This document shows positions 12,701-33,598 of a stretch of 64,000 bases of DNA, piece after piece (position 1 is the first letter of the stretch; each line of letters begins with the position of its first letter). This DNA comes from Mobula hypostoma (taxonomy: Eukaryota). The notes under the pieces are model-generated. The model saw only the letters and a list, made by a program, of their open reading frames with translations, did no database searches and was not told the DNA's origin. Position numbers and translations under genes: made by a program. The stretch is from positions 61,878,001 to 61,942,000 of the forward strand of contig NC_086108.1 in assembly GCF_963921235.1 (NCBI RefSeq). Reading direction: 5' to 3'.

Positions 12701-13839
12701 TAACGATGTCTTAAAGCAGTCACAGGTTGCCTTTCTATAAGGAAAATATTTGTCATTCAATGGCTAGCACTTTATCCTCACTTGAAGATATTTGTGGCAG
12801 GCAGAGAAAAAAGAGAACTGTGCAGCAGAGTAAAAGGAAGAAATGTCTGTGCACTACAGATGTGGCATTTTGACAATATTCTAAGTTGCATGTTAAAACA
12901 TGTGCATAATTCATCACACAATTATTTAATTAACAACTCTTCAGTAAACTTTCTTTTCTGTCCTTGTGTTCTTGATTTTTTGGCTTATACATTTTTGATT
13001 AGTTTCATATGTGAATCTTCTACAGCTTTACCCCATGGAGACGCATCAGTGGGTTTTAATAGTGTGCCAAGGATAATGAAGTGGAAATCTTATTTTGCAT
13101 TTGTTTATCTACAGGATATTACTCTCATTTTCCAAGACATAATGTTGCCACAGATCACTTTAGTAATTAACTACCAAACAAGTTCATTGAACAGTAGATG
13201 CATTCCTGAAAGTACAATATTATGTAAATATTAAAATGTATCAGTTCCTTAAACAAGGAAGTAGTTTTCACTCTATATTAAACCATGTTTTTTTATAACT
13301 GCCACCTTCATAGGCATTTTTTTCCTATATTCTTATCAGCAGTGGGAGCTGCATGTTGTTGAACTGTTGCTGAACTGTTCTTGGTCATAAATATGCACCA
13401 CCTAACAAGGCTTCTATATTTCAGTAACTATCAGCTGGATTCAAAAGACCTGCCAGTCAGGTACATAATTAAACAAATCACAGAATGCAATTTAGTTTGA
13501 ACTGTGCAGACACCAGACTTGCCAACAATCTTTGCTAAACAATATTGAGCCAGACTGAAATAAGATTCAGAATACAACTGGTTATTAAACTTTTATGTGC
13601 TGTGATCTTTTCTTAGGAAAGCCACAACCAAGCTGAACTGAATAAACAGTGCATCAATTTTGTTTTGAACAACAATAATCTATTATTACATAATGAATTT
13701 GCATCACACTATGTATGCACTGTACCTGTTGGCTTTATGTTTGCAGATTAGTTTCACAGCAGTTATTTAAATGTATTAAAGTATTTTTAAGTGTATTAAG
13801 TTATTTACAGCTTTGAAGAAGTCACAAGAAGTGTTAATG

Positions 13840-14137
13840 ACAATAGCACACTTAATGTCGTTTGACAGGAGCTTTGAAAAGATCCCAGATAGCAGATTAG
13901 TCAGTAAGGTAAAATCCAAAGGAGGAATGGCAAGTTGGATCAAAAATAAGCTGAATAGCATACACCAAGGGGTATTGATCGATTGATGGAGATGTTTAAA
14001 ACATGGCAACTTTTTCAGTGAAGTTTCCCAGCCATCCTTGCTTTTTGTAATATATATTTGTGATTAGACCAAAATGGAGGAGCATCCTTAAGAAACTTGC
14101 ATATGATAGAGAAAACTTCTGCCACAAGGTTAATTGT
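13840..14137 (+). mobile_element. Ancient CR1 RT fragment, left half of the provirus target site (continues at 27907-27960)
   Basis: Decayed KAFDKVP...WI...KFADD region ending AAGGTTAATTGT. Joined to AAGGAAGAAAGC at 27911 it reads KVNC-KEES, like CR1 KVNCEED. Confidence 0.65.
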
Positions 14138-14396
14138 TCTGATGGCACTGGGTTTGCTGACCACGAAGTTCAAAACTCTTATGAAGATCTTAAGCCCTAT
14201 CCGATATAGATAGCTACAGGAATCCTCACTAAAGGGAGGTTATACTGCAACCACCTACTCTACAAAAGCTAGTTCATTTCCCTGTTTATCCTTCACAGGG
14301 AGTTGAGCTGCCGATATCCATAATTTGAGCAGTGTGCCCCCATCCCAACCAAGGAGGATATGCTTCCAGCTGACAAAGTAGATTAAACACAGTTCA

Positions 14397-14402
14397 TTTA
14401 TT
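14397..14402 (-). terminator. LTR polyadenylation signal AATAAA (also at 27255-27260 in the 5' LTR)
   Basis: TTTATT on the + strand, conserved in both LTR copies about 260-270 nt from the U5 end. Confidence 0.6.
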
Positions 14403-14602
14403 TATAGTGATACATGTTTAAATTTAGATAAATTCTTAAATCATATTTAAAACTTAGAGGATTTCTATCTTATAAAAGATAAAAAGATTACAAAGGATTT
14501 CCAAAACACAGGTACAATTCCTATAAGCTAAAAATACATACCAACAAGTTGCAGATGAACAAATTGTCCATTGCAGAAATCAAAAGCAGAGGAATGGATT
14601 CT

Positions 14603-14681
14603 AGTTTACCTCGTCTTTCTCTCATTCTTCTTGTTGTTCCTTGACCGTTCCTCACAGCCTGACTGCTCTCACACATTTATA
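14603..14681 (-). promoter_or_regulatory. Putative LTR TATA box (14675-14681) and R-region major splice donor (GAG|GTAAACT, about 14603-14612)
   Basis: Minus strand TATAAAT followed about 65 nt downstream by GAGGTAAACT. Foamy viruses place the major splice donor early in R. Confidence 0.5.
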
Positions 14682-14771
14682 CTGTGTTTTTTTTATCACT
14701 TTGGTGACTTCATGTGATTTTTTTTTCAGATACCTTTTCACATAGGTGGTCTAAAAGCTTCTGGGGACAGA

Positions 14772-15865
14772 CTTCTGCTGTCATCAATGACGCCCTCACG
14801 CGCATCTCCTCCATTTCCCGCACTTCGGCCCTCACCCCATCTTCCCGCCATCACAACAGGGACAGAGTTCCCCTTGTCCTCACCTACCACCCCACCAGCC
14901 TCCGGATCCAGCGCATTATCCTCCACAACTTCCCCCACCTTCAACAGGGCCCCACCACTAAGCACACCTTTCCCTCTCCACCCCTCTCCGCCTTCCGCAG
15001 GGATCGGTCCCTCCGCGACTCCCTGGTCCACATATCCCTTCCCACAGATCTCCCACCTGGCACTTATCCCTGTAAGCGCAAGTGCTACACCTGTCCCTAC
15101 ACTTCCTCTCTTGTCACCATTCAGGGCCCCAAACAGTACTTCCAAGTGAGGCAACACTTCACTTGTGAGTCTGTTGGGATGATCTATTGTAACTGGTGCT
15201 CCCGGTGTGGCCTCCTCTACATCGGTGAAACCCGACGCAGATTGGGGGACCGCTTCGTCGAGCACCTCCGCTCCATCCGCCACAACAGACAGGATCTCCT
15301 AGTAGCCACCCACTTCAACTCTGCTTCCCACTCCCATTCAGATATGTCCATACATGGCCTCCTCTACTGCCATGATGAGGCTAAACTCAGGTTGGAGGAA
15401 CAGCACTTCATATACCGTCTAGGTAGTCTCCAGCCCCTTGGTATGAACATAGAATTCTCCAAGTTCTGGTCATTCCCTCCCCCTCCCTTTCTCTATCCCT
15501 ATGTCACTCTGCCCCCTCCCCCAGCTGCCTACCACCTCCCACTTGGTTCCACCTCCTTCACTATCCATTGTGCGTTCCCCTTTTCCTTCTTCACCTTTCC
15601 TGCCTATCACCTCCCTGCTTCCCCTCCCCCACCCCTTTACCTTCCCTCTTACTGTTTTTTCACCAGGAACCTACCAGCCTTCTCCTTCCCACCCTTCCCC
15701 CACCTTCTTTATAGGGCCTCTGCCCCTTCCCTCTACAGTCCTGACGAAGGATTCTGGCCCGAAATGTCGACCGATCGTTTCCACAGATGCTGCCCGACCT
15801 GCTGAGCTCCTCCAGCATGTTGTGAGTGCTGCTTTGACCCCAGCATCTGCAGAATATTTTGTGTT
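14772..15865 (+). mobile_element. Penelope-like element 3' portion (GIY-YIG endonuclease region and terminal repeat)
   Basis: ORF 14714..15805 has CKRKCYTC, IYCNWCSRCGLLYIGETRRRLGDRFVEH, VATHF and GMN motifs typical of the PLE GIY-YIG domain. Confidence 0.92.
15736..15773 (+). ncRNA. Minimal type I hammerhead ribozyme motif in the Penelope terminal repeat (slightly decayed)
   Basis: CAGTC-CTGACGA-AGGATTCTGGCCC-GAAAT-GTC-GACCG. Confidence 0.6.
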
Positions 15866-15883
15866 AGTGAATATCCATCACAA

Positions 15884-15904
15884 TCCTCCCCATTCCCACT
15901 CCTT
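15884..15904 (-). promoter_or_regulatory. Polypurine tract of the provirus
   Basis: Minus strand AAGGAGTGGGAATGGGGAGGA lies one base before TGTGATGG, the start of the 3' LTR. Confidence 0.8.
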
Positions 15905-16048
15905 GCTATGTAAAAATTTCTAATCCAGCTTCTCCCTACAGAAATCAGTTGTGCCATCAGACTTCTGCAAAAACTTCTCTTGGGAGTAGACTATCACTCC
16001 ACCAACCATTCCAGTAGGTTACCAGTGCTGGAAGACCCTGCCTTGATC

Positions 16049-16279
16049 AGATGCTCAAAGAACTCATTGAGTTCTTATTTAATTTAATATTTGATATATT
16101 TTTCTGTGATCGTATGCTTTACTTGCTATCTTATATGTGCTATATGTGCCTTGTGCTGTCTGTGACTGTTTGGTACTGCGTTTTGCACCTTGGCCCCCAG
16201 AGGAACACTGTTTCATTTGGCTGTATTCATGGGTATGCATGTATGGTTGAATGACAACTAAACTTGAACTTGAACTTGA
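16049..16279 (+). mobile_element. Short non-LTR retroelement 3' end nested in the provirus
   Basis: Ends in an (AACTTG)n tail at 16261-16278. Confidence 0.55.
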
Positions 16280-17059
16280 GTATTTCCCAATGTAGGGATT
16301 TCTGTGTGAATTTTTCTTTGTATTCATTTCCTTAATCTCAGCTGTGCACATTTCTGCAATCTCAAAGGATTGTTACCAATATAATTTTTCCATAAATGTG
16401 CAACCACAATGCATCAATGTCTATATTAGTCCATTTTTAAGATTTTCTGCCTCAGAAACAGTTTTTGCTATTTCCTTGATGCAAGTTTGGATCACTGTCT
16501 GTCGCTGTTAGTTCATCAGGTCAGCTGGTAATGTCTTTCAATAAACCGAAGATAGTTCATTTCTTTCACAGGAGTGTTGGCATTGCTTTGGATACGGTGC
16601 AAAATTTTATTCAGATTTTCCAAGAACAAGTCTTGTAAACAATTTACTAATTACATATGGCTGTATTCTTTTGCCTAAGTATTACATTTTAGTTACAGTC
16701 AGTTACACAATTTCACAACATAATAAAAATCATAGTGGATAATCATCACTTATTGAGGTAACCTGCCTCAATATGTGTAGTGAGGTAAGGACAAGTATAT
16801 TACTCCTCTAGAGGATTCTTTCTGTTCTTTTAATTTTGGATGACCAGATAAAAAGGTGTCAGAACATAGGGATTTGTTATTTCTCTCCAATGGGAGTGAA
16901 CACCCATTGGTGTGCTGTAGCTTGGCATTTTGATACCATCTCCATAAATTTCTTCCCATTTTGATGATTCTGGACTCTAGTTGTAATTGTCCAGGTCTCC
17001 CCACTCCCTCCCCATTTATTTTGTTAAGGATTGGACCTGACTGAGAAGAATGACACACC

Positions 17060-17648
17060 CTGAAAAATGAAGTGGCTCTGGAGACGGGTTGAAGGTCAGT
17101 GTCAGGGCAGGAAATCGGTGTGAAATGGTAGATGGAAGATCTAAGGCTGTGTGCCCAAAGACCTGAGATCTTTGGGCACAGAGCTCAGAAAAAGCGACGC
17201 AACGGACTTCTAACATCGTAAACCAGTGAGTTGTTTGTCATGTCACCCCTCTCGCTGTGGAACAGAGACACTCCTTTCTCCCTTATTAGGAAGAGAGAGA
17301 GAGCCTGTGGTATGTCAAATACTGGGTGAATGAGCAGTCTTTGGAGTACTGCAAGTCTGTGTCTTTGCTGTTGCTTTGCTCACGCTTGAGTGCTCAGTGC
17401 CAGGTGCCAATGCTTTTTTTTGCTGGTGGGGGTGGGGGGATTGTTGCTTGCTGCCACTTACACACAGGAGAGAGGGGAGCTGGGGGTACTTTGGGGTTCT
17501 AACGTTCAACTGTCATTCATTCTTTGGGGCATTCCTCTGTTTTTCGTGGATGGTTGCAAAAAAAAAAAGCATTTCAGGATGTATATTGTAAACACTTCTC
17601 TGACATTAAATGTATCTTTGAAACTTTGAAACTTCAAAACTTCAAAAC
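17060..17648 (+). mobile_element. Non-autonomous retroelement (SINE-like) nested in env
   Basis: GC-richer body ending in ATTAAA plus a tandem (CTTTGAAA/CTTCAAAA) tail at 17617-17648. Confidence 0.55.
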
Positions 17649-17803
17649 CTTCACACTTTTGTGTTTTCCCAGAAAACTTTAACTGCGCACGGGCTACCAG
17701 TCTGTTCTATTAGACCATGGGATTTTGTCAACCGAATATTCTGATTCTGCTTGAAACGTTAAGAATAACACAAATGGCAGTATTGGTAGGCTGAGTGGTC
17801 CCA

Positions 17804-18188
17804 CAAGGGGTGATTTACAAGTTCGTGGCCTAAGGTAGAAGGAGTCAGTTTTAGAAAACCAAGCACATTTAATTTTCAACATAGTCCCCTCCTTCATGTA
17901 CACACACAGTTCCAGCGGTCGTGGAGCATACGGATCTTGGACGTCCAGAAAGTGTCCATAGTGAGGGTGATTGATAAGTTCGTGGCCTAAGGTAGAAGGA
18001 GATGAGTTATTAATTTCAAACTTTCTGCGTAATCACTCAAAGCATTGAACTGCATGTGCATGTAACGAGAGCCGTATAACTCATCTCTTTCTAAGTGTAG
18101 GAGGGGACTATGTTGAAAAATAAATGTGCTCGGTTTTCTAAAATTGACTCCTTCTACCTTAGGCCACGAACTTATCAATCACCCCTTG
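17804..18188. mobile_element. Mariner-derived MITE with a third, internal TIR copy
   Basis: Termini CAAGGGGTGAT...AAGTTCGTGGCCTAAGGTAGAAGG and its reverse complement, followed by TA. Internal TIR copy at 17962-18000. Confidence 0.85.
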
Positions 18189-18354
18189 TATGTAATATCT
18201 AAATAGGTGAGTAAAAAGATGTTTGTCGACTCATCTTTCTGTGGGATTGTGTAATTAGACCAATTATTTGCAACATCCCAACTCCCGACCACAACTGCCC
18301 CACCCCCAAGATGAGGCAAGAATCATGCATACCCTTTCACAAAGTTAGTGATCA

Positions 18355-18870
18355 GGACTAAGAAACGAAGAGGACAAGGATAACATGATTAAGGCAGTCC
18401 CCGCACTTCGCTCTTCTGGGGCTGAAGATGAACTGGAGGAATGGATAAAAGACGAGTACGAGGCAGTGCTTAGCAAAGTAGACATACTTTGCAGGGTACT
18501 GCAGGTCAGATATTGGATTTGGTGGAGTCCTGAGAGTGGAGCCGTTATACAAAAGGCAGAAGCCACCTAAAATCTCTCATTGCTGGCTTCAATATTTCAA
18601 CAGAAAGAGCACTATAAAATAATAGTACCATGGCTAGAGGAATCATGCATTGGAAAACTGCAAGAAAAGATCTTATTACCCAATTTAACGTAGTGTCAAT
18701 TCTCCCAGAGACTGTATTCACTGCTGCAGAAGTTAAAACAGCAACATCCGGAAAGGTCAAAGCTATTGTTTGACCTGCAGTCAGGGAATTAGTATAGATT
18801 TAGAAGGAAAACTGTGAAAGGAGGTACCTTTCTCATCTGATTGTGTATTGAGAAATATTCTTTTGATTTA
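18355..18870 (+). pseudogene. Gag-like pseudo-ORF (possibly the foamy Gag central domain) in inverted orientation inside env
   Basis: One frame with 2 stops reads IKAV...DELEEWIKDEYEAVLSKVDILCRVLQ...RLYSLLQKLKQQH, resembling PFV Gag IRSV...REIPIWLGRNAPAI...DLRCRIIN...QLGNVIKGIVDQEG. Confidence 0.4.
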
Positions 18871-18874
18871 AATG

Positions 18875-19280
18875 AGATTTTTCTAGACAAATATCAGGTC
18901 CTTCTAGAATATTCTTTGTTGCCTCTATAATGAATCTTTCCTTAAAACCAGACTTGCATTTTTGTCCTGAGCTACGCATCATGAATTAAATAATCAGATT
19001 ACTCCATGAGCCATTTCCTTTATAAACCTCCGATATTGGTATGTCTGAACAATTTTTGTCATCAGAAATTTTTATCTTCTGAGTGAACTGAAAGATCACA
19101 TCAGTGTTACTCTGAGAGTGAACACTCAATGCCATGGCTGTACAGGCAGTTTTACTCTAATATTTTTTAAAATAACATGAAAAATTGTTAAGGGCTAAAT
19201 TGTTGGTTTTTGCTTGTGATAATAATACCATGCAATTGAATACATGGGAATAATTGAAGGTTTGTCTGTGTAACGTTACA
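18875..19280 (-). pseudogene. env: Foamy-like Env SU C-terminal remnant
   Basis: ACTAMALSVHSQSNTDVIFQFTQKIKISDDKNCSDIPISEVYKG parallels PFV ECKLASKAYGIDTVLFSLKNFLNYTGTPVNEMPNARAFVG. Confidence 0.5.
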
Positions 19281-19282
19281 TA

Positions 19283-21232
19283 CAATGCATATTCTGCCCC
19301 CACAACTATTTTCACATTTTACTGTCTCATTTTCTAAATTTAAAATATATTGAAGTTCAACTTTTGAGCTAACCTACAAAACATCGTGCATCGCATCGAA
19401 TAAAAGTAAAATTTCCAAAACCTAAAAAATTAAAAACCAAAATCGTGAAGCTGAAAAAATATTCATCCCCTTTGTAATTACTACACTAATTTAGAGTTAT
19501 AAATCTAGTCGGCTTCATCTTGCGTACTGGCTTACAAAGTACCCAGGACATCTTCAGGGAGCGGTGTCTCAGAAAGGCAGTGTCCATTATTAAGGACCTC
19601 CAGTACCCAGGGCATGTCCTTTTCTCACTGTTAGCATCAGGTAGGAGGTACAGAAGCCTGAAGGCACACACTCAGCGATTCAGGAACAGCTTCTTCCCCT
19701 CTGCCATCCAATTCCTAAATGGACATTGAACCCTTGGACACTACCTCACTTTTTTTACTATACAGTATTTCTGTTTTTTGCATGTTTTTTAATTTATTCA
19801 ATATACATATACTGTAATTGATTTACTAATTTATCATTATTATTTATTTTACTTCTCTTCTATATTATGTATTGCTGCTACTAAGTTAACAAATTTCACG
19901 TCACATGCAGGCGATTATAAACCTGATTCCAATTCTGATTTCCTTAGGTGCAATACTGAATATTACCTTACCAATCTGTCAATGTAGAAAATTGGAGGGT
20001 CACCTATTTTCAATGAAGTCATAACAATAAATACCACTCTATCAGTAAGATCCAATGGTATGGTAGAATTTCAAGAGACCAAACCAAAATGAAAACAAAA
20101 GAGCATTCAAGACAAGTCAGGGAAATGATAATAAAGAAGCACAAATCTGGGGAAAAGGATTAGACCATCTTAAAAGCACTGAACTTAACTCAGAGCACCA
20201 TGGAGTCCATCATGAAATAGTGGGAAAAAATATGAAACCACAGTCACACTGCCCAGGTCAGGCCGCCCCTCTAAATTTAGCCGCAGGAGAAGAATACCAC
20301 TTATAAGAGACCCTACTGTGACACCATCAGTCAATCTGAATGAGCTGCAGAAGTCAGTGGTTGCAACTGCAGATGCATTTCCTATCTCCACAATCTCCTC
20401 GGTCTTGCACAAAAAGGGTACTTATGGAAGAGTGGCAAGGAAGAAGCCTTGGCTGAAGAAAATGTATCCTTGCCCATAAAGACTTTGAAAAGCATCACTT
20501 GGGAGATACTGTAAAGACTTGTAAGAAGGTCTTGTGGTCGGATGAGCCAAAAGTAAACTTTTTGGCCTCAACACTAAAAAGTATGTGTGTCTTAAATCTA
20601 ATACTGTGCATCAACCAGTAAACACCACCCCTACCATAAAGAATGGCAGAGGTAGCATCATGCTATGGGAATACCTTTCAGCAACAGAGACTGGAAAATC
20701 CGGTCAGGATTGGAAAATCCGGTCAGGATTGATGGGAAGATGAATGCTGCTATTTACAGAGAAATCCTGGATAAAAACCTGCTAGCTTAAAATGGGGCGG
20801 ATGTTTGTCTTTCAGCAGGACAATGACCCAAAGCACACTGCCAGAGCATCACCAGAGTGACTTCAAATGAAGAAAGTTGTCCTTGAGTAGCTTAGTGAGA
20901 GTCTGAGCCTAACCCGATCAAATATCTCTGGTAAGGCCTTGAGAATGCTGTCCACCGCCACTCCCCAACTAACCTGGCACAGCTTGAGTACTTCGGAGGA
21001 GGAATAGGCAAATCTTGCTCCATCATGTTGTGCAAAGCTAATAGAGGCTTTTCCAAAAAGACTACAGGCTGCAATAATTGCGAGAGGTGATTAACACTGA
21101 GCAATGGGGAATGAATACTTTGGAACTGCTGGTATTTCAGTTTTGAGTTTTTAGTTTGTCATGCTTTACAATTTTACCTGATTTAGGGCTCTACTGTGGG
21201 AAAAAAAGGAGCACGTGATTCACATGTGACTG
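19283..21232 (+). mobile_element. Tc1-like DNA transposon with decayed transposase (about 20088-21090) and a nested Rex1/Babar 3' fragment (about 19490-19940)
   Basis: MKTKEHSRQVRE, LPRSGRPSK, VLWSDE and FQQDNDPKH motifs. Inverted inner repeats AAAATATTCATCCCC (about 19456-19470) and GGGGAATGAATACTTTT (about 21106-21121). Confidence 0.9.
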
Positions 21233-21239
21233 TTCAACT

Positions 21240-21550
21240 AAAAGCAAGTAGGAAATCCAGGTGGGTACAATAAAATCTCTAAAGAGCTCATTTGACTTCT
21301 CAGTTTCATCTCACCAGGGAGGAAAACATTTTTTTTTATTTTACCTTCTGCTTCAGTGCATCTTTCCATCTTATTTTCCCATGCAAAAATCAGATCAAGA
21401 GCTTTGCTGAGCCATTTAGAATATAAACCAGTAATGCTGCAAACTACTGTTCCTGTTACCATGACATTTAACGGTGGAGTAGAATCGTGGCCAGAATTAG
21501 AGAAGTTGAAATATCTGAAGTCTTCATAGTATGTATATTTGTATACTTGT
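21240..21550 (-). pseudogene. env: Foamy-like Env SU middle remnant
   Basis: VVCSITGLYSKW and KIKKNVFLPGEM parallel PFV LFCSDQLYSNW and LKKRALPKDW. Confidence 0.55.
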
Positions 21551-21599
21551 TTAGTATACTAAAATAAAAGTACAATGACATGTCTGTCTAAAGTAGAAG

Positions 21600-21822
21600 A
21601 GTCAATTAAAATGTTTTTTCACAATGTTCTAGTCTAACAATTTCAAAGTCATGTTTCTCATATTTCTCAATACACAAACGGATGAGCGAGGCACCTCTTT
21701 CACAAGTTTTCTCTGCAAACCCATACTAAGCCCATAACTAGCTTAACGCTCCAGCTGGAACAATAACTAAGACCTTCCCAGCTGTTGTAATTTTAACTCC
21801 TGCAGCAGCAAATACAGTTTCC
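21600..21822 (-). pseudogene. Second copy of the gag-like segment
   Basis: Reverse complement of 21660-21821 aligns to 18708-18858 (13 mismatches in the first 63 nt). It reads KLYLLLQELKLQQ...KEVPRSSVCVLRN. Confidence 0.45.
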
Positions 21823-22125
21823 ATGCAACACACACAAAATGCTGGAGGAACTCAGCAGGCCAGGCAGCATCTATAGAAAAGAGTGCAGTTGATGTTTTGG
21901 GCCGAGACCCTTCATCAGGGCTGGAGAAAAAAAGATGAGGAGTCAGAGGAAGAAGGCTGGGGGAGGGGAGGAAGAAACACAAGGTGATAGGTGAAACTGG
22001 GGGGAGGGGTGAGTGATGAGGTAAAGAGCTGGGAAGTTGATTGGTGAGAGAGATACAGGGCTGGAGAAGGGGAATCTGATAGAAGAGGACAGAAGGCCAT
22101 GGAAGAAAGAAAAGGGGGAGGATTT
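21823..22125 (-). mobile_element. Penelope terminal-repeat fragment with decayed hammerhead motif (21886-21923)
   Basis: Minus strand CAGCC-CTGATGA-AGGGTCTCGGCCC-AAAAC-ATC-AACTG, then GATGCTGCCTGGCCTGCTGAGTTCCTCCAGCATTTTGTG. Confidence 0.85.
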
Positions 22126-22129
22126 GATG

Positions 22130-22875
22130 AGTGGGACTAATCGGTGACATAACGGTGTCTGTGCTTTCCTGAAGGTCCAGAAGGATCCATGTCAGGAGAT
22201 TTCCCTACTTGGTTACCTTCAATATCTGGGCTGGAGTCTTTTAGTTTTGTTAAAGGGTCGTGAATCATTTTTGCAAGTGATTCTTTGCCTTCCCACGTAT
22301 CTATGTTCACTTCATCCGCAATGCGGTCAGAGTGAATGTTTAAGTGGACAGGAACAATCGCTTTGCCGGAGGCAAGGATGAAGGATTCCAGTGTATTAGT
22401 TCACACATGAACAAGAGGTAAGGGCCATCTGGTGATATTTAAATTAGTATCATCATTACTCACAGAGGTTCTTACTCTAATATTTTCTGAGTCATTATGT
22501 TTCGGGGTGTCCAAGCCAGATGAGGCAATTTCAGTGGCAAATACTACTTCTTCTGCTAAAGAGCAAATGGTAAGTAAGGCAGCACTGAATTATATTGTTA
22601 TGAACACAAATATTAAAAATAAAGCATAACAAGAGGAGCATTTCTTCCTGAAGTTTGAGTCTTTCTTACTCCAACAACAACAATGCATTTTGAGTGCGTT
22701 ATTCATGGGCAATACATCTATGAAATCTTCCTCAAGTGAACAGGAATCTCTATTTTTTTTAGATCTAAACATGTGCTATATCTTTTCAATACTTCTCACC
22801 ACACCTCTTCTCTCACTAGGTGTAGGGGTTTTATGGCGTACTCACATACCAGTCAAATGTAAGGGTTCCACTCAT
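22130..22875 (-). pseudogene. env: Foamy-like Env leader peptide and SU N-terminus
   Basis: Candidate start MSGTLTFDW overlapping the IN end. Hydrophobic span CYALFLIFVFITI*FSAALLTIC. Furin-like RVRTS. LNIHSDRIADEVNIDTWEGKESLAKMIHDPLTKLKD versus PFV MINSENIANNANLTQEVKKLLTEMVNEEMQSLSD. Confidence 0.7.
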
Positions 22876-23179
22876 TCTGGGGGATAAATCCTGCTGGGGC
22901 AGCTTTGATGTTCTCTATGGAGACCACTTTACTGATAGTTTTGTTTCCCCTCCCAGTCTTGATTACCACAGTCCTATCATTGATAAGCCAGGTAACAAGA
23001 CAAGAAGGTTTCTATTTAGGATGGAAACTAGAGTTAGAATTATAATTATAAATTTTGTTTTCTAGGACCCAATCCACTTTTTGTGGTATAAATACTTCCT
23101 TATCAGGTTATTTTGGTTTCTCTTGAATTCCCATAAACCCTGTCAACTCCTTGAGGAGAGATGTATCAGGTATACGCAA
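22860..23179 (-). pseudogene. pol: Foamy-like integrase C-terminal (SH3-like) domain
   Basis: SLLKEL...SFHPK*KPSCLVTWLINDRTVVIKTGRGNKTISKVVSIENIK versus PFV SLLQEI...[39 protein letters not shown]. Confidence 0.85.
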
Positions 23180-23181
23180 TA

Positions 23182-24517
23182 CAGGTGACCCCGCTTTTCG
23201 AACGTTCGCTTTAGAAAATATCACTGTTACGAAATAGCTACATTAGTACCCTGTTTTCGCTAACAGAAGGTTTTTTCACTGTTACGAAAAAAGTGACACG
23301 CGAAAAATGACGGCGTGTGGGAAAAAAAGCAGCATGCGCCCCAAGCAGCCAAGCTCCTCCCCCAGAACTGCATTCTAGCCGCCATTGCTTAAACACGTGC
23401 TTTATCTCGATTTATTTTGTGCATCCATTAGCAAGGTGAGTTCGAAGGTATCGGAAAAGCCTAAAAGAGCTCGGAAGGGTGTTACACTTAGCGTAAAACT
23501 AGACATAATTAAGCATTTCAATTGTGGTGATCGAAGTAAGGACATTGTCCGTGCATTGAACTTGCCTGCATCCACCATTCACACTATTTACACACAGAGA
23601 GAAAAAATCTTGAAAGCTGCCGATGTTACTGTTGGTTCTGCTCGTAGCAAAGTGGTCTCTCTTAGTCAGCATCCAGTAATGGATAAAATGGAAAGTCTAT
23701 TGCTTGAGTGGATTGGTGGATGTACACAACGTGGTGTTCCTTTAAGTTATCTTATACTTATGGAGAAATCAGTCAGTCTTTTTAATAAGCTGAAACAGAA
23801 AGCACTGGCCGATGGTGATGAAAGTGTTGTGAAAGTGGAATTTAAAGGTAGTCATGGGTGGTTTGATCGGTTTCTGAGGCAAGGGCAGCTTCATAGTTTA
23901 ACGTTTACCGGAGGGAGTGCTTTGGCTGATACTGAAGCTGCTGAGAGGTTCCCAGCAGAACTGAAGAAAATAATTACAGAAGGTGGTTATTGGTATAAGC
24001 AAGTGTTTAACTGTGACAAAACTGCAATTTATTGGAAAAAATTGCCGAGTAAGACATTTATTTCGAAAGAAGAAAAGCAGGCTAAGGGACACAAGGCATC
24101 GAAGGACAGGTTTACCCTAATACCTATTATTAACGCCACTAAGCTTCTACTAGGGTACCATTCAGAAAATCCGAGGGCACTTAAAGGCGTTGATAAGAAA
24201 ACACTTCCCGTTGTGTTCCATTCACATCCAAGCAGTTGGAACACCCAAGTGCTATTTTCTGAGTACATGAGCAGATACGTTAGTCCTTTTGTTGAAAAAT
24301 ACTGTTGAGAAAATAACCTCGATAATAGGTGTCTTGTGATTGTCGATAATTGTGCTGCTCATCCGCCTGATATTACCGAGTATGGCAGTAACATTCGTAT
24401 TGCGCTCTTACCGCAATACGAATGTTACTGCCATACTCGGTAATGTCAAACGGATGAGCAGCACAATTATCGACAATCACAAGACACCTATTATCGAGGT
24501 TATTTTCTCAACAGTAT
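23182..24517 (+). mobile_element. Tigger/pogo transposon, 3'-truncated, with transposase ORF 23385..24308 and a terminal foldback
   Basis: TA followed by TIR CAGGTGACCCCGC. HTH_psq and CENP-B-like HTH regions, FKGSHGWFDRF, QVFNCDKTAIYWKKLP, KDRFTL. Confidence 0.92.
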
Positions 24518-24700
24518 GGAAACAGGTCAGACTGGCCAACAGATCTCTGGTGAAGCTGTATAAGCCAATCGCCTGTACAGTCAATACAATGGATTACAGA
24601 AACAATGGTGAACTCCAACCATACCATCGAATTTGGACAATGGAGCAGGAAGTCATAAATGGCCTATGCTCCACTGGGAGCTAAGGGCCCAAGAAGAAAA
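24518..24700 (+). mobile_element. Probable RTE-type retroelement 3' end
   Basis: Ends GGCCTATGCTCCACTGGGAGCTAAGGGCCC-AAGAAGAA, resembling RTE 3' termini with a GAA tail. Confidence 0.4.
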
Positions 24701-25140
24701 TATAATCAATTTTCCACACATGCATTTGTGTAGTTGGTTTTATTTGTCTAATAGGTGGTGGGCTTGTGACTGCTCCTTTATGATAGACCAGGCATTCTTC
24801 ACAATTTGCAATAAATTGCTTCCAATCACCTAGCATGTAAGGTAACCAGTATAACATAGCTAATTTCGTATGAGTGGCTTGTCTGTCACATTAATTGTGT
24901 CCGAATCCTTGGTGGGCTTCTCAGATCAGTGCTTCCAGCTTGTGGGCAGGAGATATTTGCTTCTGTTTTCTAGGGTGGCAAACCCAAACCTTACCTTCAC
25001 CATTAGCTTCATACTTGTACGGTATTGGAAATTGTTTGGAATTGGGCTCAGTAGTATCCAGGAGAATTCTTAAAACATCGTCCCAGTTATTTTTCATTTT
25101 TTGTTTAGTTACTACTAAAAACCTGGCTTCCCTCTGCGTT
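24700..25140 (-). pseudogene. pol: Foamy-like integrase N-terminal extension and HHCC zinc-binding domain
   Basis: EAHQGFGHN*CDRQATHTKLAMLYWLPYMLGDWKQFIANCEECL...SPPPIRQIKP...WKIDYI versus PFV [40 protein letters not shown]...SGPILRPDRP...FFIDYI. Confidence 0.88.
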
Positions 25141-26024
25141 GTAAGGTCCATCCCGACAGCTTGTTTTGCTTGCTCATTGACTAGTTTATTACCGTAGCTG
25201 TGTAAGAGGCCTGCAGTATATACCAGAATGTAAAACTTGTACTAATAGTTGAATCAATAACAATTCATAAATATTCTTTCATGTGGACAAAGGTGGAAGC
25301 AGTTTACCTCTGTGTGTTCTCCATCTAATTGTTGACCAGATTGGAAGATCTCTTTCTACTGCATTCCTAACATAATTAGAGTCAGTACAGATCAAGGCTG
25401 GTTCTGTTTAATTTACATGTTTTAGACATCATTCTAGGGCTTTTGCCTCTGCTAATTGAGCTGTATGATTTTCTGAAAGATTCATGTAGTTCAAATTCAG
25501 TTTCAAATAAAAATAAATTCCTTTTATAATCCCTGCTCCTGCCTGTAGTTGAGAGGATCCATCTTTTTGGATTTCCATTGTTGATCCATCCTGGTACTGG
25601 ACTATAACTGAGAACAGTGCTCTAAAAGATGTGCTACACTGGGCCATGGAGAAGGTGGTTCTGTATCTTCCATGACAGTCAAGGATTGTAAATTATACCT
25701 CTGAGGAACATATTCCCACTTTAAGGTGTCAACTTGTAAAGTGTTTGCCATATCCCATAGCTAGTTATGGTAGCTCTCTGTTCATTTGTTGGTAATGTAC
25801 TTTTGTTTCTCAAAGCCAAAACTCTGTTTGTATAGTAATTGGTTTGTTCCCTTGCAGTGGTCATACTACAAATAAGTGTATATAACAAGACATCATTCTA
25901 AGGCAGTAAATTTCTGTTCTGTTAGAGTGAAATTATATGAGGCATAGTGTCTGGTGGCTTGTGCTTTTTCTCCCTTAATATAGCAGATGGCTACAGCAGT
26001 TTTTGGATTCACAGAACTAAGTTC
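25140..26024 (-). pseudogene. pol: Foamy-like Pol connection domain and RNase H
   Basis: YASYNFTLTEQKFTALE, YQDGS, AGAGI, NHTAQLAEAKALE, PALICTDSNYV...RDLPIW and LHSYGNKLVNEQA versus PFV YLNYVFSKAELKFSMLE, YTDGS, AGMGI, NHTAQMAEIAAVE, PVLVITDSFYV...KELPYW and IHTEGNALADKLA. Confidence 0.92.
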
Positions 26025-26880
26025 ATTAAGAACTAAATTTATATCAAACTACATACTGTATAAGTCACCATATACAACCTTGAAATTCATTTTCTTGCAC
26101 ACATACTCAATCTATCCATCAAATAATAACTTTAACAGAATCGGTGAAAGACTGCACCAACCTGGGCATTCAACCAGTGTGCAAAAGTCAACAAACTGTG
26201 CAAATACAAAAAAGAAGGAAATAATCTAATAAATAAGCAACAAATATTGAGAACATGAAAAGAAGAGTCCTTGAAAGTGAGTCCATTGGTTGCGGGAACA
26301 TTTCAGTGATAGGGCAGGTGAAGTTGAGTGAGGTTATCCCCGCTGGCTCGAGAGCCTGGTGGTTGGAGGGTACTAGCTGCTCCTTAATGTAGTGGTGTGG
26401 GTCCTAAGGCTCCTGTACTTCCTTCCTGATGGCAGCAGCGTGAAGAGAGTATGCCCTGGGTGCTGGGGGGTCCCTGATGATGGATGCTGTTTTCCTGTGC
26501 ACATTTTTCATGTAGATGTGCTCACTGGTGGAGAGGACTTCACCCATGATGGGCTGAGCTGTATCCACTACTTTTTGTAGGATTTTCTGTTCAAGCACAT
26601 TGGTCTTTCCAAACCAGGCTGTGATGCAGCCCATTAATATACTATCCACTACACACCTTTAAAAATTTGTCGAAAATTTAGATATCATGCCGAATCTTTG
26701 TGAATTCCTAAGGAAGTAGAGACTTTGCTGCGTTTTGTTCATACTTCCATTTACAAGTTGGGCCCAGGACAGATCCTCCAAAATAATAAATATTTAAACC
26801 GAGGAACTTAAAGTTGCTAACCGTCTCCACCTCTGATCCTTCGATAAGGACTGGCTCAGGGACCTCTGGCTTTCTTCAGC
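26025..26880 (-). mobile_element. Rex1/Babar-type LINE 3' fragment nested in the provirus
   Basis: DSILMGCITAWFG...LQKVVDTAQ...ASIIRDP (DUF1891-like C-terminus). Confidence 0.85.
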
Positions 26881-26962
26881 GCTACAGTGCTTGTTGAACA
26901 TGCTCCGAGTTGAACTACTGCTAAATAATGATACTCTGTAAAGTAATACTTTTGGTATAACA

Positions 26963-26980
26963 TGACCACATTGGCTGCCA
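26963..26980 (-). promoter_or_regulatory. Primer-binding site, degenerate tRNA-Lys1,2 type
   Basis: Minus strand TGGCAGCCAATGTGGTCA versus Lys1,2 PBS TGGCGCCCAACGTGGGGC (12 of the first 15 match; two changes are CpG-type). It lies 2 nt after the 5' LTR. Confidence 0.7.
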
Positions 26981-26982
26981 AC

Positions 26983-27906
26983 TCTGATTGTATTGGGTTT
27001 GCTGACCGTGAGGTTCTGAACTCTAATGAAGATCTTAAGTCCTATCTGATATAGATGGCTACAGGAATCCTCACTAAAGGGAAGTTATACTGTAAGCACC
27101 TACTCTACAAATGCTAACTTACTACCCTGATTATCCTCTGTGGTGAGTTTAGCTATCAATACCCACTAACTGAGTGGTGGAACCCCCCCCCCCACCCCTC
27201 CCCTACCGAGGAGGAGATACTTCCAGCTGATAAAAGTAGTTTAAACACAGTTCATTTATTTTTAATGATACATATTTAAATTTAGATAAAATTTTAAAAC
27301 CCGCTTAAAACTCTGAGGATTTCCATCTTGTAAATTTTTTCTAAATTACAAACTATTTCTAATACAAAGTATTTCCAAAACCAGGTACAATTCCTATAAG
27401 CTAAAAAGACATTTTCACATAGGTGGTCTAAAAGCTTCTGGGGACAGAGTTGCCAGATACTCACAATAAATGCTGTGATATTGACCTTTTGGGTACCCAA
27501 ATCTTCCAGATATTAATAGATCACCTATTTGATATCAGTCTGGTCTTTGGGCTTTCTTAAACAAAATAATTTAGCCAGTGTTGTCTGGTTTGATACAAGC
27601 CCAATTAACATAACCCCATTGTTTTACACTGCATCTCTTAAGCAGTCAGCTCCGTGCCATGGGCTTGCAGTCTGTGCTCTATAGACAGTGCTGTCCTTTT
27701 CACTTCACACTGATTATTGCTTTCCATATACATTAAGAACTGAAGACTGGCTCCCATTTATGACAAGAAGCTGAACATAGAGTATTGGCTGGAAGTTTAA
27801 CTTAAACAAAAACTAGTTTTTGGTCTCTAGAAGATTCAGCTGCTATGTTAGAAAGCTGAGCTTGGCAAAAAGCCTCCCTGGCCCTGGACAGTGAATGTCC
27901 ATCACA
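26983..27906 (-). repeat. 5' LTR of the foamy-like provirus (924 bp; lacks a ~195-bp segment kept in the 3' LTR)
   Basis: Direct repeat of 14138-15882, starting TGTGATGG on the minus strand and flanked by the TTGT TSD. Confidence 0.9.
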
Positions 27907-29119
27907 TTGTAAGGAAGAAAGCTGCCGTCTAGGAAGATGGTAACAGATGAGTCAGGTAGACAGGAGCTTGCCATCAATTACTGCTTGGGCTTTCTCTCCT
28001 CTTTCTCACTATCCACCCATTTTCCTGAGGCATTCTGCTCACTGGGGTTGGTGTAACTTTTCCCTTGTTCACTGGAACGGGCTTCTCAAGGATTCAAAGT
28101 ACATTTATTCTCAAAGTATATACACAGTATATACTCTTCTTCCCACAAACAACCATGAAACAAAAACAAAACATGGTACCCATTCAAAGAAAAGCATCAA
28201 ACCCCAACATGCAAAGCAAAAAGAAAACAAATCACGCAATGGTAAAATAAAAGAGCATACAGCACCCAGTATAAAATCCCAAACCAGATAGTCATCGAAG
28301 GAGTCAAGGCACATTCAGTCCAGCTCAGTTCAGCCCAGCCCAGTGCTGTGTCTTCATTATCTGCAGCACTGTTGTGGATTCCTTCCCATGCAATGCAACA
28401 AATTAGCTATGACACAGCTCGTCTTCTACAATAGCTGTTTAATTTTAAAGTTCTTTATTCTCAATTTTTAAGGAGTATATTGTCCATTGCTAGATAAATG
28501 GATTAAAGGCAGCCATGAAGTGTAAGACTTTAGCTTTATTTGCCAGAGCCAGCTATGTAGACACAAGCACAATCTGAACAGGTGATGCCTAATGAAATGA
28601 GACAGGTAGAAGGACTAACAAGTATTTTATTTTGTCTTCTCTTCCTGAGGAATGTTTTCTCAGATCATTAGGTTAGCATAAATCATTCAGGTACGGTTAA
28701 AAGCCCTTTGGCAGATCTTAGACTGCAGAAGTAGCCATATTATACATTAATTATTTCCACCAATCCAAGTTTCACATTGATCTTGAACAGAATTTTAAAT
28801 TTTGTCTTTACAGAATAATTTTTTTGCTTTTACACATGCCACCTTGACGTTGGCCAAGCAAACACCAGCACTTCTCAGAACTTTTATTCCTTGTCACACA
28901 AAGGGATGATTCCCCACCGATATGTACGGTGCTTCATACCAAAGCTGACGGATCTTATTGAAATTATAGTTTAGAACCTCAGGCAGCTGCTGTGGCAGAG
29001 TCTTTGCATATATTACAGTCAGAGACTAACAGACAATTAAACTACAAATGAGTTGTGGGACAAGCAGAGAATGGAAGTTGTGTTTAAGCTAAGATTGGAT
29101 CAGCCTTGACTGCTAATTC

Positions 29120-29445: not shown

Positions 29446-31279
29446 ACTAAAATTAAAAATGTGTGATATTATTGAACGAACAGACTTGATTTGCTAAATG
29501 ATCCTATTTTGTGTGTTTATGCATTTATTTATTTACACAAGGAAGGAGGATAGTTGCCTGTTGAGCCTTTACAAATCTCTGTGAAAAAACAATCCATCTC
29601 CTTCAATTAGCTGGTCTTAACGTAAAATAATCTATTTCAATGCTGTTAACCTTGGGGCATCTGTAATTTATCTCTATCTTATGAGTACAAGTTCTCTGGC
29701 CACTAAAACCATTCACAAATAACAATTGAGTCCTACCTACAGATCTTCAGGACAGACATGAAACCCTGAAAAATGTTATTTCCCTTTTACAGTTACTTTT
29801 CTTAAGTCCCTGTATTCAAAACATTTCCTTATTCCGATTAATGTTTCTGATTATTATTGTGGTAATTTAATTATAAGTTGAGCGCTTAGGGGGTAAAAAT
29901 ACATTAAAAATATCAATTTGCTTACAGCCTAAATTTTAGCGAGTTATGTGATAGCCACTTGAGAAGGTCAAATCATGACCATTGTAGGAAGGATAAGAAT
30001 GTAATCTCAAAAATCTATAACAATGGAGCTCATTTTTATATCACATATAAACCAAATGGATGAAGGGACCAGGGCATGGAACTTGATGGCTTATTCCTGT
30101 TCATTTGTCCCTTCTGTCAGCACCACTTAATGTTTTCAGTTTTCTCAATTGTTACATAGCTATATTTCACAGAAATAAGCCATTCAGCCAATCAGTCCAC
30201 ATCAGAGTTTCTGCTCCAGACACGTTCCCTCTGGTTTTCCTGATCTAGATGCAGCGGTGTAATCCTCTAATCCCATCTCCATTGTATGCTGGTCCAATCT
30301 CCTACTCAATACATCATTATTCTTTGCTTCAGTCACTGCCTCTTATGGTAAATTCCACATTCTCACCACCCTTTGCAAAATGGGGTTTCTTCTACACATT
30401 TTTCTAAGGTTTTGCTACCTATGGCACAACATTTCGTGATTTGAGTGTTTGTACACCAAGATTCCTTTGTTCCTCTACCCCACCTACACTCCTTTACAAA
30501 TTCTTTTCTCAGTCCCTCAAAATCAGCTTTATTCCAATTGAATAACTAGTTCATAATCCTATTGAGATTCTCCTCTCAATCAGCTTCAAAGTGTTTTCTA
30601 TTATTGTAATGTACAAATCTATTTCTTTTAGCACAAAGTCTCCCCTTAGCACTAATCATTGACTGATAACCTATTCATGCACATTGATTTGTTGCTGTCT
30701 CTGCAAAGTGAATATACCACTTAACCTCACCTCCGCATGTGTGCTTTTATTGAATTAATATGTAGTTGTACAGACACAAGTTGGTGGCATGTATGAACCT
30801 GAATGTCAGCGAATATCACCAATTGCACTGATAGTTACAAGACAACAGAATTTGGAGGAAGGAAGAGAAAGAGTGAGAGGAATCAGTATGGAGAAGGCTG
30901 TCACGGATACCAGTAAGGAATGCATGAGAAATAGCGCAAGGTAAACAGTGAGAGATGCATAATCAGCAAAGTTAAAGTGAAAATAATGTGCCAAAGGCCT
31001 TAGTTGGGAAAGATGATGAATCTGATGGAGCTAATGAGGACTAGGAATAATATATTGAGAGGTTTGAACTGTATTGTATTGCGAAGGGCGGAATGAGGAA
31101 AAGAATGTCTCCATACTTAGCTTAATGAGTGCGAAAACATACAGGTTCTTACGCAAATTAGTAACATGTGAAAAGCTAGCAAAAGCAATACATTCAACGA
31201 AATTGTTACAATTTTACAAAATCACTTAAGCCCTAAACCACTAATAATAGCTGAGAGATTAAGATTTCACAAAAAGCAT

Positions 31280-32650
31280 TTAATACCCAATCTATCCCAT
31301 TCTTTAAAAACTAGATTGGTCATAGAAGGTTTAAAAAATTAATTAGAAAAATGGTACTTGAAAGAGAAAATCTCGATAAACCAAAGTATTTTCTAAATTG
31401 TACCCAGATCCTCAAAGTATGTTTAACTACCAAATTGTCAGTTAATTTACTTAAAGATAAAGGAAGTGAGGATCCAAGAAGAGAAATGGGATAGATTGGG
31501 TATTAAATACTTCCAGGATTTGTTTGTTGGAGGAAGTCCCTTTTAGTTTGAGCAATTGTCAGCTAAATATAGTTTACCAAAAACCCACTTTTTTCGATAT
31601 CTACAAATTAGAGACTTTCTGCAATCTCAATTATATACATTCCCTAAAAGTCCTGATAAGAACTTATTAGATGTAATTTCTAATTTGAAACCTTTTCATA
31701 ATGGTTCAATATCCAATATTTATGGCATGTTGCTGGGAATGAGAAATGCTCCTTCAGACAAAATTAAAAATCTCTGGGGACAAGATTAACAGACTTCAAT
31801 TTCTGAAGAAACTTGGAATGAAATTTTTTAATTGGTTAACACTTCATTGTTATGTGCCCGCCACTCTCTCCTACAAGTTAAAGTGGTCCATAGGGCCCAC
31901 ATGACTAAGGATAAGCTATCTCGTTTTTATTCAGATATATTTCCCTATTGTGATAGATGTAACAACGGAGAAGCTTCACTAATTCATATGTTTTGGACAT
32001 GTCTGGGTCTTGAAAAATATTGGAAGGAAGTATTTCAAACTTTCTCTGTACTTTTCAAAGTAAATTTTAAGCCTAACCCTTTGATTGCCTTATTCGGTAT
32101 TGTTGGAGGAAAAGATATTATTTTGGAGACATCTGATTTGCCCATTTTGGCTTTTATTTCTCTTATGGCTAGGAGGGCGCTCTTGCTTAAATGGAAGGAT
32201 GTCGTTCTGCCTACTCACACTCAATGGTTACGTGATGTTATGTCATGTTTAAATTTAGAGAAGATCCATTGTTCAATTTCTGAATCTAGCCAAGACTTTC
32301 AAACATTGCGGGGACCATTTTTGAGCTATTTTCAAAACCTTTGATTTGCTGGTGTTGGCTACAGATGTTGGCTAATAACATATTTCACCATATGATAAGG
32401 ACTTTTTTTCCTTTTTTCTTTCTTTACCAAACAATTCAATCTTGGTAGTGGGTTTAGATTCTCTTTTTTTGTACAATAAAATGATCATATTTCAATATTA
32501 TGATTTAATTTAATTTACATGAATATAGGGTAATGAGATTGCAAGTGTGACTCAAATATAATGTATTTGATTTTTTTTTTACTTATAATATATCTTCGTG
32601 TACTCTATATTCTTCTATGTAGAAATCAATAAAAATATTGAAAAAAAAAG
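31280..32650 (+). mobile_element. L1-clade LINE 3' fragment inserted in Gypsy gag
   Basis: HFFRYLQIRDF, CDRCNNGEASLIHMFWTC zinc knuckle, AATAAA and poly(A) at about 32628-32649. Confidence 0.9.
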
Positions 32651-32956
32651 ATTTTATTAAAAGAACCGGTCAAAGGATGAAAACAATTCTGAATACATTG
32701 CAGAACTGTGCAAACTTTCTAAATACTTTAGAGATGGGCTTTCTGGTGCATTATGGGACAGGCTTGTGTGTGGCATGCATAGTGGAAGCACTCAAAAGAG
32801 GCTACTGTCAGAAAGAGATCTAACCTTAGAATGGGTATTGACCATTGCAATGTTATTAGAGACTGTAGCAAAGGATGTGTCAAAACTACAGAAAAAGTGT
32901 TTGGAATGTAAAATGAACAAAATGTCCCTGCATGGTGCAAAAAGCCAAAAACATCT

Positions 32957-33497
32957 TTAACATCTGCCAAATGATGCTGAGGATGTTCTACGAGTCTGTG
33001 GTGGCCAGTGCTATTATGTTTGGTGTTGTGTGCTGGGGCAGCAGGCTGAGGGTAGCAGACACCAACAGAATCAACAAACTCATTCGTAAGGCCAGTGATG
33101 TTGTGGGGATGGAACTGGACTCTCTCACAGTGGTGTCTGAAAAGAGGATGCTGTCTAAGTTGCATGCCATCTTGGTCAATGTCTCCCATCCACTATATAA
33201 TGTACTGGGTGGGCACAGGAGTACATTCAGCCAGAGACTCATTCCTCTGAGATGCAGCACAGAGCGTCATAGGAAGTCATTCCTGCCTGTGGCCATCAAA
33301 CTTTACAACTCCTCCCTTGGAGGGTCAGACACCCTGAGCCGATAGGCTGGTCCTGGTCTTATTTCATAATTTACTGGCATAATTTACATATTACTATTTA
33401 ACTATTTATGGTTCTACTACTATTTATTATTTATGGTGCAACTGTAACGAAAACCAATTTCCCCCAGGATCAATAAAGTATGACTATGACTATGACT
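32957..33497 (+). mobile_element. Rex1/Babar-type LINE 3' fragment inserted in Gypsy gag
   Basis: MFYESVVASAIMFGVVCWG...SHPL...RKSFLPVAIKLYN and a (TATGAC)n tail. Confidence 0.88.
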
Positions 33498-33598
33498 AAA
33501 TGTTATTGATGTGGCAAATCTTCCCATGACACAAATGATTGTTGGTTCAAAGAAAAAATTTGCAGAAAGTGTCATAGACAAGGTCACAGAGAGAGCAT

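Follow-up and report, generated by a model that had tools for sequence, protein, structure and literature searches.

The analysed window comprises 64,000 nucleotides of Mobula hypostoma (NCBI RefSeq assembly GCF_963921235.1, contig NC_086108.1, positions 61,878,001 to 61,942,000 of the forward strand), and all positions given here are those of the window. Between 14138 and 27906 it carries, on the minus strand, a decayed endogenous retrovirus (ERV) with relics of a foamy-like pol gene, bordered on both sides by the four bases TTGT and flanked on the left by a reverse transcriptase (RT) relic of a CR1 long interspersed element (LINE). The features that make up the provirus, with its long terminal repeats (LTRs), primer-binding site (PBS), polypurine tract (PPT) and target-site duplication (TSD), are as follows.

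13812..14137, plus strand: decayed CR1 LINE RT fragment, the left flank and insertion target (nhmmer, blastx, frames followed to 14137)
14134..14137, plus strand: left copy of the TSD, TTGT (scan of alternative duplications)
14138..15882, minus strand: 3' LTR, broken, U5 end GA (self-BLAST, alignments)
15883..15902, minus strand: PPT ahead of the 3' LTR (border GAT, then TG)
16300..22700, minus strand: decayed and interrupted region at the env position, with hydrophobic and Cys-rich stretches, ends approximate (assigned from its place between integrase and PPT)
22901..23026, minus strand: possible, weak relic of the integrase C-terminal SH3 domain (Pfam SH3_11, E 0.12)
24684..24998, minus strand: integrase N-terminal relic, from the HHCC zinc finger to the region of the first catalytic Asp, with stops (Pfam Integrase_H2C2, E 3.9e-6)
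25156..25596, minus strand: RNase H relic with stops (Pfam RNase_H, E 3.9e-7)
25881..26015, minus strand: weak relic of the tether (connection) domain (3/3 PDB matches are foamy Pr125Pol 462-504, E 0.14-0.19)
26964..26980, minus strand: PBS, tRNA-Lys-like, 2 bases past the 5' LTR (motif match)
26983..27906, minus strand: 5' LTR, 924 bases, starting with TG, U5 end GA (self-BLAST, alignments, a paralogous contig)
27907..27910, plus strand: right copy of the TSD, TTGT (bridged by a contig of a relative, organism C, 27773-28400)
27911..27965, plus strand: some 50 bases in which the CR1 RT relic probably continues (anchored tests, modest support)

An earlier note on this DNA had placed TTGT at 14134-14137 and 27907-27910, and both positions were confirmed, as were the flanking letters that it quoted (AAGGTTAA before and AAGGAAGAAAGC after). 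The TTGT copies adjoin LTR ends that are defined independently of them, because the limits of the LTR-LTR similarity in the self-comparison set both positions: at the U5 ends, where the repeat starts at 14138 and 26983, 22 of 25 bases are identical inside and 3 of 12 outside, and at the U3 ends (15882 and 27906) the corresponding figures are 16 of 17 and 2 of 12. A random pair of 4-mers from the window is identical with p 0.005, which is the chance level for the TTGT match, and an intact 4-mer pair survives 15-20% divergence with a probability of 0.4-0.5. The direct repeat itself comprises five letters, ATTGT (14133-14137 and 27906-27910), and a scan of all options of 4-6 bases lying at most 4 bases from both ends returned only ATTG, ATTGT and TTGT, all of them the same repeat. 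Since the U3 ends of both LTRs read CCATCACA (15875-15882 and 27899-27906), A27906 was assigned to the LTR, and the TSD is therefore 4 bp on LTR anatomy. Two other placements were rejected, namely a 6-base TSD, with 2 mismatches, and an LTR end at the inner CA two bases earlier, where both LTR copies carry the extra two bases and no TSD fits. A paralogous 445-base contig (16% different) from organism E, another relative, matches 27604-27906 and continues with 78 unlike bases, so that the LTR edge at 27906 is independent of the CR1. The boundaries rest on the LTR alignment, the PBS, the PPT and this paralogous LTR contig that stops at 27906; the CR1 join lends them support, but the statement that it fixes them independently was too strong, as the join of 14137 to 27911 is identical for a 4- or 5-base duplication.

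The two LTRs lie in direct orientation and align over 461 columns, 84% identical, with 72 columns differing. Blocks 14138-14539, 14732-14774 and 15866-15882 of the 3' LTR align to the 5' LTR; 192 bases (14540-14731) are without a counterpart in the 5' LTR, and about 440 bases of the latter (27452-27889) are absent from the 3' LTR, at the site of a later insertion with a GIY-YIG-like open reading frame (ORF). The 43-base block at 14732-14774 is 95% identical between the LTRs, compared with 83% in the main block, a pattern that constraint or conversion could produce. The PBS agrees with that of coelacanth EFV at 13 of 17 positions, a match that good occurring at only 1 of the window's 127,984 places, and with that of human foamy virus at 12 of 17, a level found at 5 places in the window (motifs as given in PMC3386198). 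With the PBS 2 bases inside one LTR and the PPT inside the other, the element has one coherent minus-strand orientation.

The same junctions were found in relatives. Sequencing runs of five organisms contain the left region, with shares of 0.99, 0.56, 0.26, 0.09 and 0.05 (the last being that of organism D), and one run each of organisms A, B, E and C was aligned to 13300-28400; the listing covers 32 of 846,687 pieces and 15 of 15,725 joints. All four runs bridge the left junction: over 13300-14210 with 0 differences in A (a possible source of the DNA), over 13855-14210 with 6/356 differences in B, over 13317-14171 with 38/855 in E, and over 13324-14209 with 71/886 in C, where the right junction is bridged as well (27773-28400, 64/628 differences). 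The value for orthology that the earlier note attached to the locus is thus borne out by a filled site bridged in B, E and C, up to about 9% diverged; of the filled and empty sites that it proposed to look for, the former were found in 3/3 relatives but no empty site was. The TSD at independently set ends, the PBS and PPT anatomy and these filled junctions support the claim that both LTRs belong to one integration event, which we regard as very probable.

Inside the LTRs, the tether, RNase H and integrase relics stand in pol order, and foamy structures are the best PDB match for each in a best-hit comparison (foamy domain list as in bioRxiv 10.1101/2020.12.18.423569). The top 5 of 28 PDB matches of the RNase H relic are foamy Pol/RNase H structures (E 1e-12 to 1.5e-10, the next at 0.055), all 5 matches of the integrase relic are the integrase of prototype foamy virus (PFV; E 8e-10, with nothing else at E<=1), and the SH3 relic has no retroviral match in the PDB. 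The frames scanned at the env position have no Pfam family at E<=1, and nine minus-strand frames gave no match at that level to Gag_spuma, Foamy_virus_ENV or PF00523, gag being absent and env heavily decayed. Likewise, three frames of 24520-26960 gave no Pfam match for gag, protease or RT, and that interval retains no more than about 100 bases of viral origin, with a leader of about 80 bases between the PBS and a LINE fragment; these genes are therefore considered missing. The gap (26015-26963) coincides with the LINE fragment, whose insertion may have removed the genes, or the incoming genome may already have been deleted there. Three hits of a full HMMER search were read as generic RNase HI-like proteins and not as retroviral relatives; a 25-base pattern from the LTR was matched 0 times in JGI metagenomes, and Rfam gave 0 matches. 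Nearly all complete foamy-like ERVs of fish are described as giving 4-base TSDs (PMC5210030), as foamy viruses do (PMC4422553), and both mostly use tRNA-Lys (PMC5210030, PMC4422553); the 4-base length is common to foamy viruses and gammaretroviruses and hence not foamy-specific (PMC5210030).

The left flank is a CR1 relic, with 13812-14105 matching a profile of 7 CR1 copies from the window (nhmmer, E 6.5e-8) and a best E of 4e-9 against 120 CR1 proteins (blastx). The right flank was examined by frameshift-aware extensions anchored where the left flank predicts. With a profile of 101 proteins over 60 bases, 49/1500 random segments and 22/500 shuffles scored equally well; with a profile of 16 proteins, composed of the left flank's best matches and proteins of cartilaginous fish, 7/1500 random segments did so over 60 bases and 10/1500 over 90 bases, the expected anchor ranking second of 393. 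DNA alignment to 6 window copies over 60 bases was equalled by 16/3000 random segments and 53/2000 shuffles, with best offsets at 31-33 of 130 compared with the 36-39 expected, and the LTR side scored at background in each anchored test. Because the best offsets spread over 31-39 bases past the Ala codon, the register of the join is good to a codon or two. Judged from these alignments, the right flank is probably a CR1 continuation of about 50 bases, modestly supported, and it is likely that both flanks come from one CR1.

An insertion inside an older CR1, as claimed in the earlier note, is thus well founded on the left flank (E 6.5e-8) but only modestly supported on the right. The peptides quoted for the join are real (14093-14137 encodes KLAYDRENFCHKVNC, and 27911 onward reads KEES), but they restore no open RT frame: the left relic is spread over three frames and contains a stop; past the join, the frame changes after about 7 codons and stops occur. 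The comparison motif KVNCEED occurs in 0/101 CR1 RT proteins and VNCEED in 2/101, and the relic has one codon more than the VNCEED proteins between the FADD position and the Cys. A further 80 CR1 loci from metagenomes, at 29-62% protein identity to the query, were not used.

Taken as a whole, the locus is best read, with a probability of about 0.7, as a foamy-like (class III) retrovirus that integrated once into a dead CR1, was fixed before the relatives split and then decayed. A retroviral integrase joins the viral ends to target strands cut 4 bases apart, and host repair duplicates the target. By this ordinary route, the virus would have entered a dead CR1 LINE in an ancestral ray germ line, with the cut and the subsequent repair copying TTGT to both sides and the provirus lying on the minus strand from 27906 to 14138. 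Fixation preceded the split of A, B, E and C, as the filled junctions show, and neutral decay would account for the LTR divergence, the missing gag-protease-RT segment and the later insertions. We infer the order CR1 first, provirus second and other insertions later, and no present function of the provirus is apparent.

Several results weigh against this history. The clade-defining marker, RT, is missing, the RNase H match does not separate foamy viruses from lokiretroviruses (Loki), since the Loki RNase H is described as grouping with that of foamy viruses (PMC7947760), and the RNase H and integrase relics returned no retroviral relative in word-based or full HMMER searches. Both U5 ends carry GA instead of the CA described as invariant, and the foamy GGGTG at the border of PPT and 3' LTR is absent, the border reading GAT and then TG, with 2/3 bases different. 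One of the 4 runs bridges the right junction with a piece among the 32 of 846,687 listed, too few to speak for its absence in the others; no empty site was seen, and no 14137-27911 joint stands among the 15 of 15,725 joints listed. The right flank, taken alone, was not detected by blastn and tblastx within the window, by nhmmer or by blastx against the 120 CR1 proteins (best E 2.5). Moreover, a DNA position-specific scoring matrix (PSSM) from 7 window copies ranks the expected offset fourth, with the best at -148, to which its discarded null of 17/3000 refers, and is not significant, nor is the DNA alignment over 80 bases (171/3000 random segments, 346/2000 shuffles).

Alternatively, the CR1 relic hit by the provirus may have been a short one that ended at or close to the insertion point, with the right flank being unrelated DNA that resembles the CR1 continuation by chance; the TSD would still be real. 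The flank goes undetected on its own, its similarity fades after about 27-55 bases, the 80-base test is non-significant, and the best p-values are optimistic, with several tests tried. Set against this are the three anchored 60-base tests, whose p values are 0.005-0.04 at the place where the left flank predicts the continuation, and the weak signal to be expected of a relic decayed throughout; a chance resemblance is accordingly improbable, and a single CR1 target remains preferred.

We give little credence, too, to the possibility that the same single integration and TSD belong to a lokiretrovirus-like or other dual-RNase-H element. To our knowledge, no Loki structure is in the PDB, so best matches may default to foamy ones, which counts in its favour, as do the absence of the foamy PPT border motif and of a Foamy_virus_ENV match in Pfam. 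Lokiretroviruses share with the ray element a foamy-type RNase H within a dual RNase H, the Loki RNase H being described as clustering with that of foamy viruses, and their tether is recognisable (PMC7947760). Conversely, the integrase relic matches PFV integrase at E 8e-10, whereas the Loki integrase is by description nearer CGIN1 and the Loki Env resembles paramyxovirus F (PF00523; PMC7947760), neither of which was found in the ray element, with no fusion-glycoprotein match in Pfam among its decayed frames. The PBS agrees with coelacanth EFV at 13/17, and the five host classes named in the main text of PMC7947760 do not include cartilaginous fish. Family membership is tentative, as the element has no RT and departs from one foamy hallmark, and its type of RNase H occurs in lokiretroviruses too; a foamy-like element is nonetheless the probable identity.

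Two separate insertions joined by recombination or mis-assembly, with TTGT matching by chance, would account for the 16% LTR difference (72/461 columns, plus large indels); a multi-copy family and the fact that none of the contigs listed covers the whole element also speak for it. Summed contig depth over the LTR bins lies far above that of the flank bin, which points to a multi-copy LTR family and gives no copy number. Such an origin is very unlikely: a chance TTGT match has p 0.005; organism C has both junctions and B and E the left one, so the arrangement is not an assembly artefact of A; the unusual GA is common to both U5 ends; and the LTRs are about twice as far apart as A and C, which fits an insertion predating the A-C split. 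Least credible is a duplication of 5 bases with the 5' LTR starting one base further in, for which the ATTGT repeat is exact and the flank join is the same under either reading, but A27906 is matched at 15882 in the other LTR and completes the TG start, the paralogous contig alignment reaches 27906, and foamy-like ERVs are described as making 4-base TSDs (PMC5210030).

Regarding the termini of the provirus, both LTRs start with TG and both U5 ends are GA (14138-14139 and 26983-26984, viral strand), a departure from the TG...CA rule in an element with a clean TSD. The terminal CA has been described as invariant (PMC1180852), and terminal changes are reported to reduce lentiviral integration by up to 3-4 logs (PMC5423482). 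Two independent identical transversions at the U5 ends have, by arithmetic from the LTR divergence, a probability of roughly 3e-4, and the LTRs differ at 3/10 bases next to the GA end; the incoming DNA therefore probably already carried GA, although a short gene conversion may also have placed it in both ends. The GA end is known from this one locus only. The PPT border motif of foamy viruses is GGG followed by TG (PMC5210030), and its absence here may be due to decay. It is conceivable, if doubtful, that the locus represents a multi-copy foamy-like lineage of rays, not yet described, with a family-wide GA U5 end, no foamy PPT border, an integrase that handles DNA ends differently yet leaves clean 4-base duplications, and a shared insertion that, among the retroviral orthologues of cartilaginous fishes open to direct dating, is one of the oldest. 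Were GA shared by the whole family, a textbook rule of retroviral integration would have an exception.

The LTR-LTR divergence amounts to 0.177 by the Kimura two-parameter (K2P) model (resampling interval 0.136-0.222; 72/461 columns). The A-C distance is 0.090 (0.096 by the Jukes-Cantor, JC, model), determined from 7 of the 8 listed C pieces; the eighth, 18% different and paralogue-like, was dropped. The ratio of the two distances, 1.85 (1.4-2.3), places the insertion at about 1.85 times (1.4-2.3) the age of the A-C split, consistent with the filled site in C. At 5e-10 per site per year, the rate assumed for the catshark (PMC10699275), the age would be 177 million years (Myr), and at 2.2e-10, the rate assumed in PMC4422223, 402 Myr; with 1e-9 and 2e-9, taken as illustrations, it falls to 88 and 44 Myr. 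The measured rate of the epaulette shark, 7e-10, is per generation (PMC10587355), and no ray rate was found in the literature, so that the LTR age in years depends on the rate assumed. A relative that split off early enough to lack the insertion would have diverged by about 18% or more, which is as far as the tools used can reach. Published dates, as described, rest on LTR clocks whose assumed rates differ more than 2-fold (2.2e-10 and 5e-10; PMC4422223, PMC10699275); the ratio of LTR to species distance of 1.85 can calibrate such a clock, and a site common to four ray taxa sets, once these have been named, a minimum age that does not depend on any rate.

Finding a TSD within an older repeat is commonplace, and sharks are already known to carry foamy-like ERVs; the value of the locus is that of a datable fossil. 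When compared to the foamy-like ERVs (FLERVs) of fish, amphibians and the elephant shark, as described in PMC5512871 and PMC5210030, the ray element is alike in its 4-base TSD, long LTRs, tRNA-Lys-like PBS and foamy-like pol, and those studies likewise use TSDs to argue that paired LTRs represent one insertion. In contrast to them, it has no GGGTG border, its U5 ends are GA, its gag-protease-RT segment is missing, and its LTR distance is 0.18, compared with 0.002-0.044 for the dated AciFLERV and NviFLERV-1 copies (PMC5512871, PMC5210030). ERV-Spuma.0-Sca of the small-spotted catshark (PMC10699275) and the CmiERVs of the elephant shark (PMC4422223), compared here by description, are ERVs of cartilaginous fish dated by LTR divergence. 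The former is foamy-like, as is the ray element, and its oldest copy was put at about 36 Myr (PMC10699275); CmiERV LTR distances, at 0.024-0.033 (PMC4422223), are below that of the ray element. The available portions of both accounts report no orthologous sites across species (PMC10699275, PMC4422223). Prototype and other mammalian foamy viruses provide the best structure matches (PDB 3OYK integrase, 7O24 and 2LSN Pol/RNase H), a 4-bp TSD and a PBS alike at 12/17, but the similarity is distant (E 1e-9 to 1e-12), there is no Foamy_virus_ENV or Gag_spuma match, and the ray element is endogenous and dead. The decayed RT segment on the left flank belongs to the same clade as the CR1 LINEs of rays and sharks, with about 43% identity over 77 residues to the CR1 RT protein P0033; in contrast to those LINEs, what survives is only about 330 bases to the left of the provirus and perhaps 50 to its right, broken up by frameshifts, stops and deletions. 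Class III ERVs are reported as abundant in cartilaginous fish (2,843 RT loci in 6 genomes; PMC11089739). No account of a foamy-like ERV or of an orthologous ERV site in rays turned up in a literature search that covered few subscription papers and not the supplements of PMC5512871 or PMC7947760.

At least six other elements have inserted into the provirus.

14775..15865, plus strand: element that entered the 3' LTR later and carries a GIY-YIG-like ORF, which we take to be Penelope-like (Pfam GIY-YIG, E 0.0051, below the curated cut-off)
17803..18189, no strand assigned: insertion resembling a miniature inverted-repeat transposable element (MITE), with 94-base terminal inverted repeats (related copy at 54203-54520)
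19950..21100, plus strand: Tc1-like DNA transposon relic, ends approximate (Pfam HTH_SB, E 1.1e-7; HTH_Tnp_Tc3_2, E 1.3e-5)
21820..22140, plus strand: high-copy insertion like a short interspersed element (SINE), presumably a SINE (repeat family; loose ends at 21825-21830 in 4/4 runs)
23181..24517, plus strand: Tigger/pogo-like DNA transposon splitting the integrase (Pfam CENP-B_N, DDE_1, HTH_Tnp_Tc5)
26060..26880, minus strand: LINE fragment at the gag-protease-RT position, presumably L2/Rex-like (copies at 44931-45145 and 45759-45932, 73-81%)

A second copy of the GIY-YIG element lies at 46857-47506 (72%). In organism C, a contig starts matching at 18189 after 199 unlike bases, and the MITE-like element may thus postdate the split; another stops matching at 23181, and the Tigger-like element may be absent there. 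The latter ends in a 106-base fold-back, 97% perfect (24299-24517), and a similar one is situated at 58566-58797 behind another copy. A second LTR element, Gypsy-like by eye, extends over 30690-38000, with protease-, RT- and integrase-like stretches at about 34600-37300 and similar ends near 30700-30780 and 37900-38000, and is interrupted by LINE pieces. A young-looking CR1 at 55781-56851 has a 356-codon open RT frame that is 92% identical to a Mobula protein, the top one among the named matches. Finally, two CR1 RT proteins with about 60% identity to the ray element, P0033 and P0043, are assigned to Proteus mirabilis and Klebsiella pneumoniae, probably because vertebrate DNA contaminated the bacterial records.

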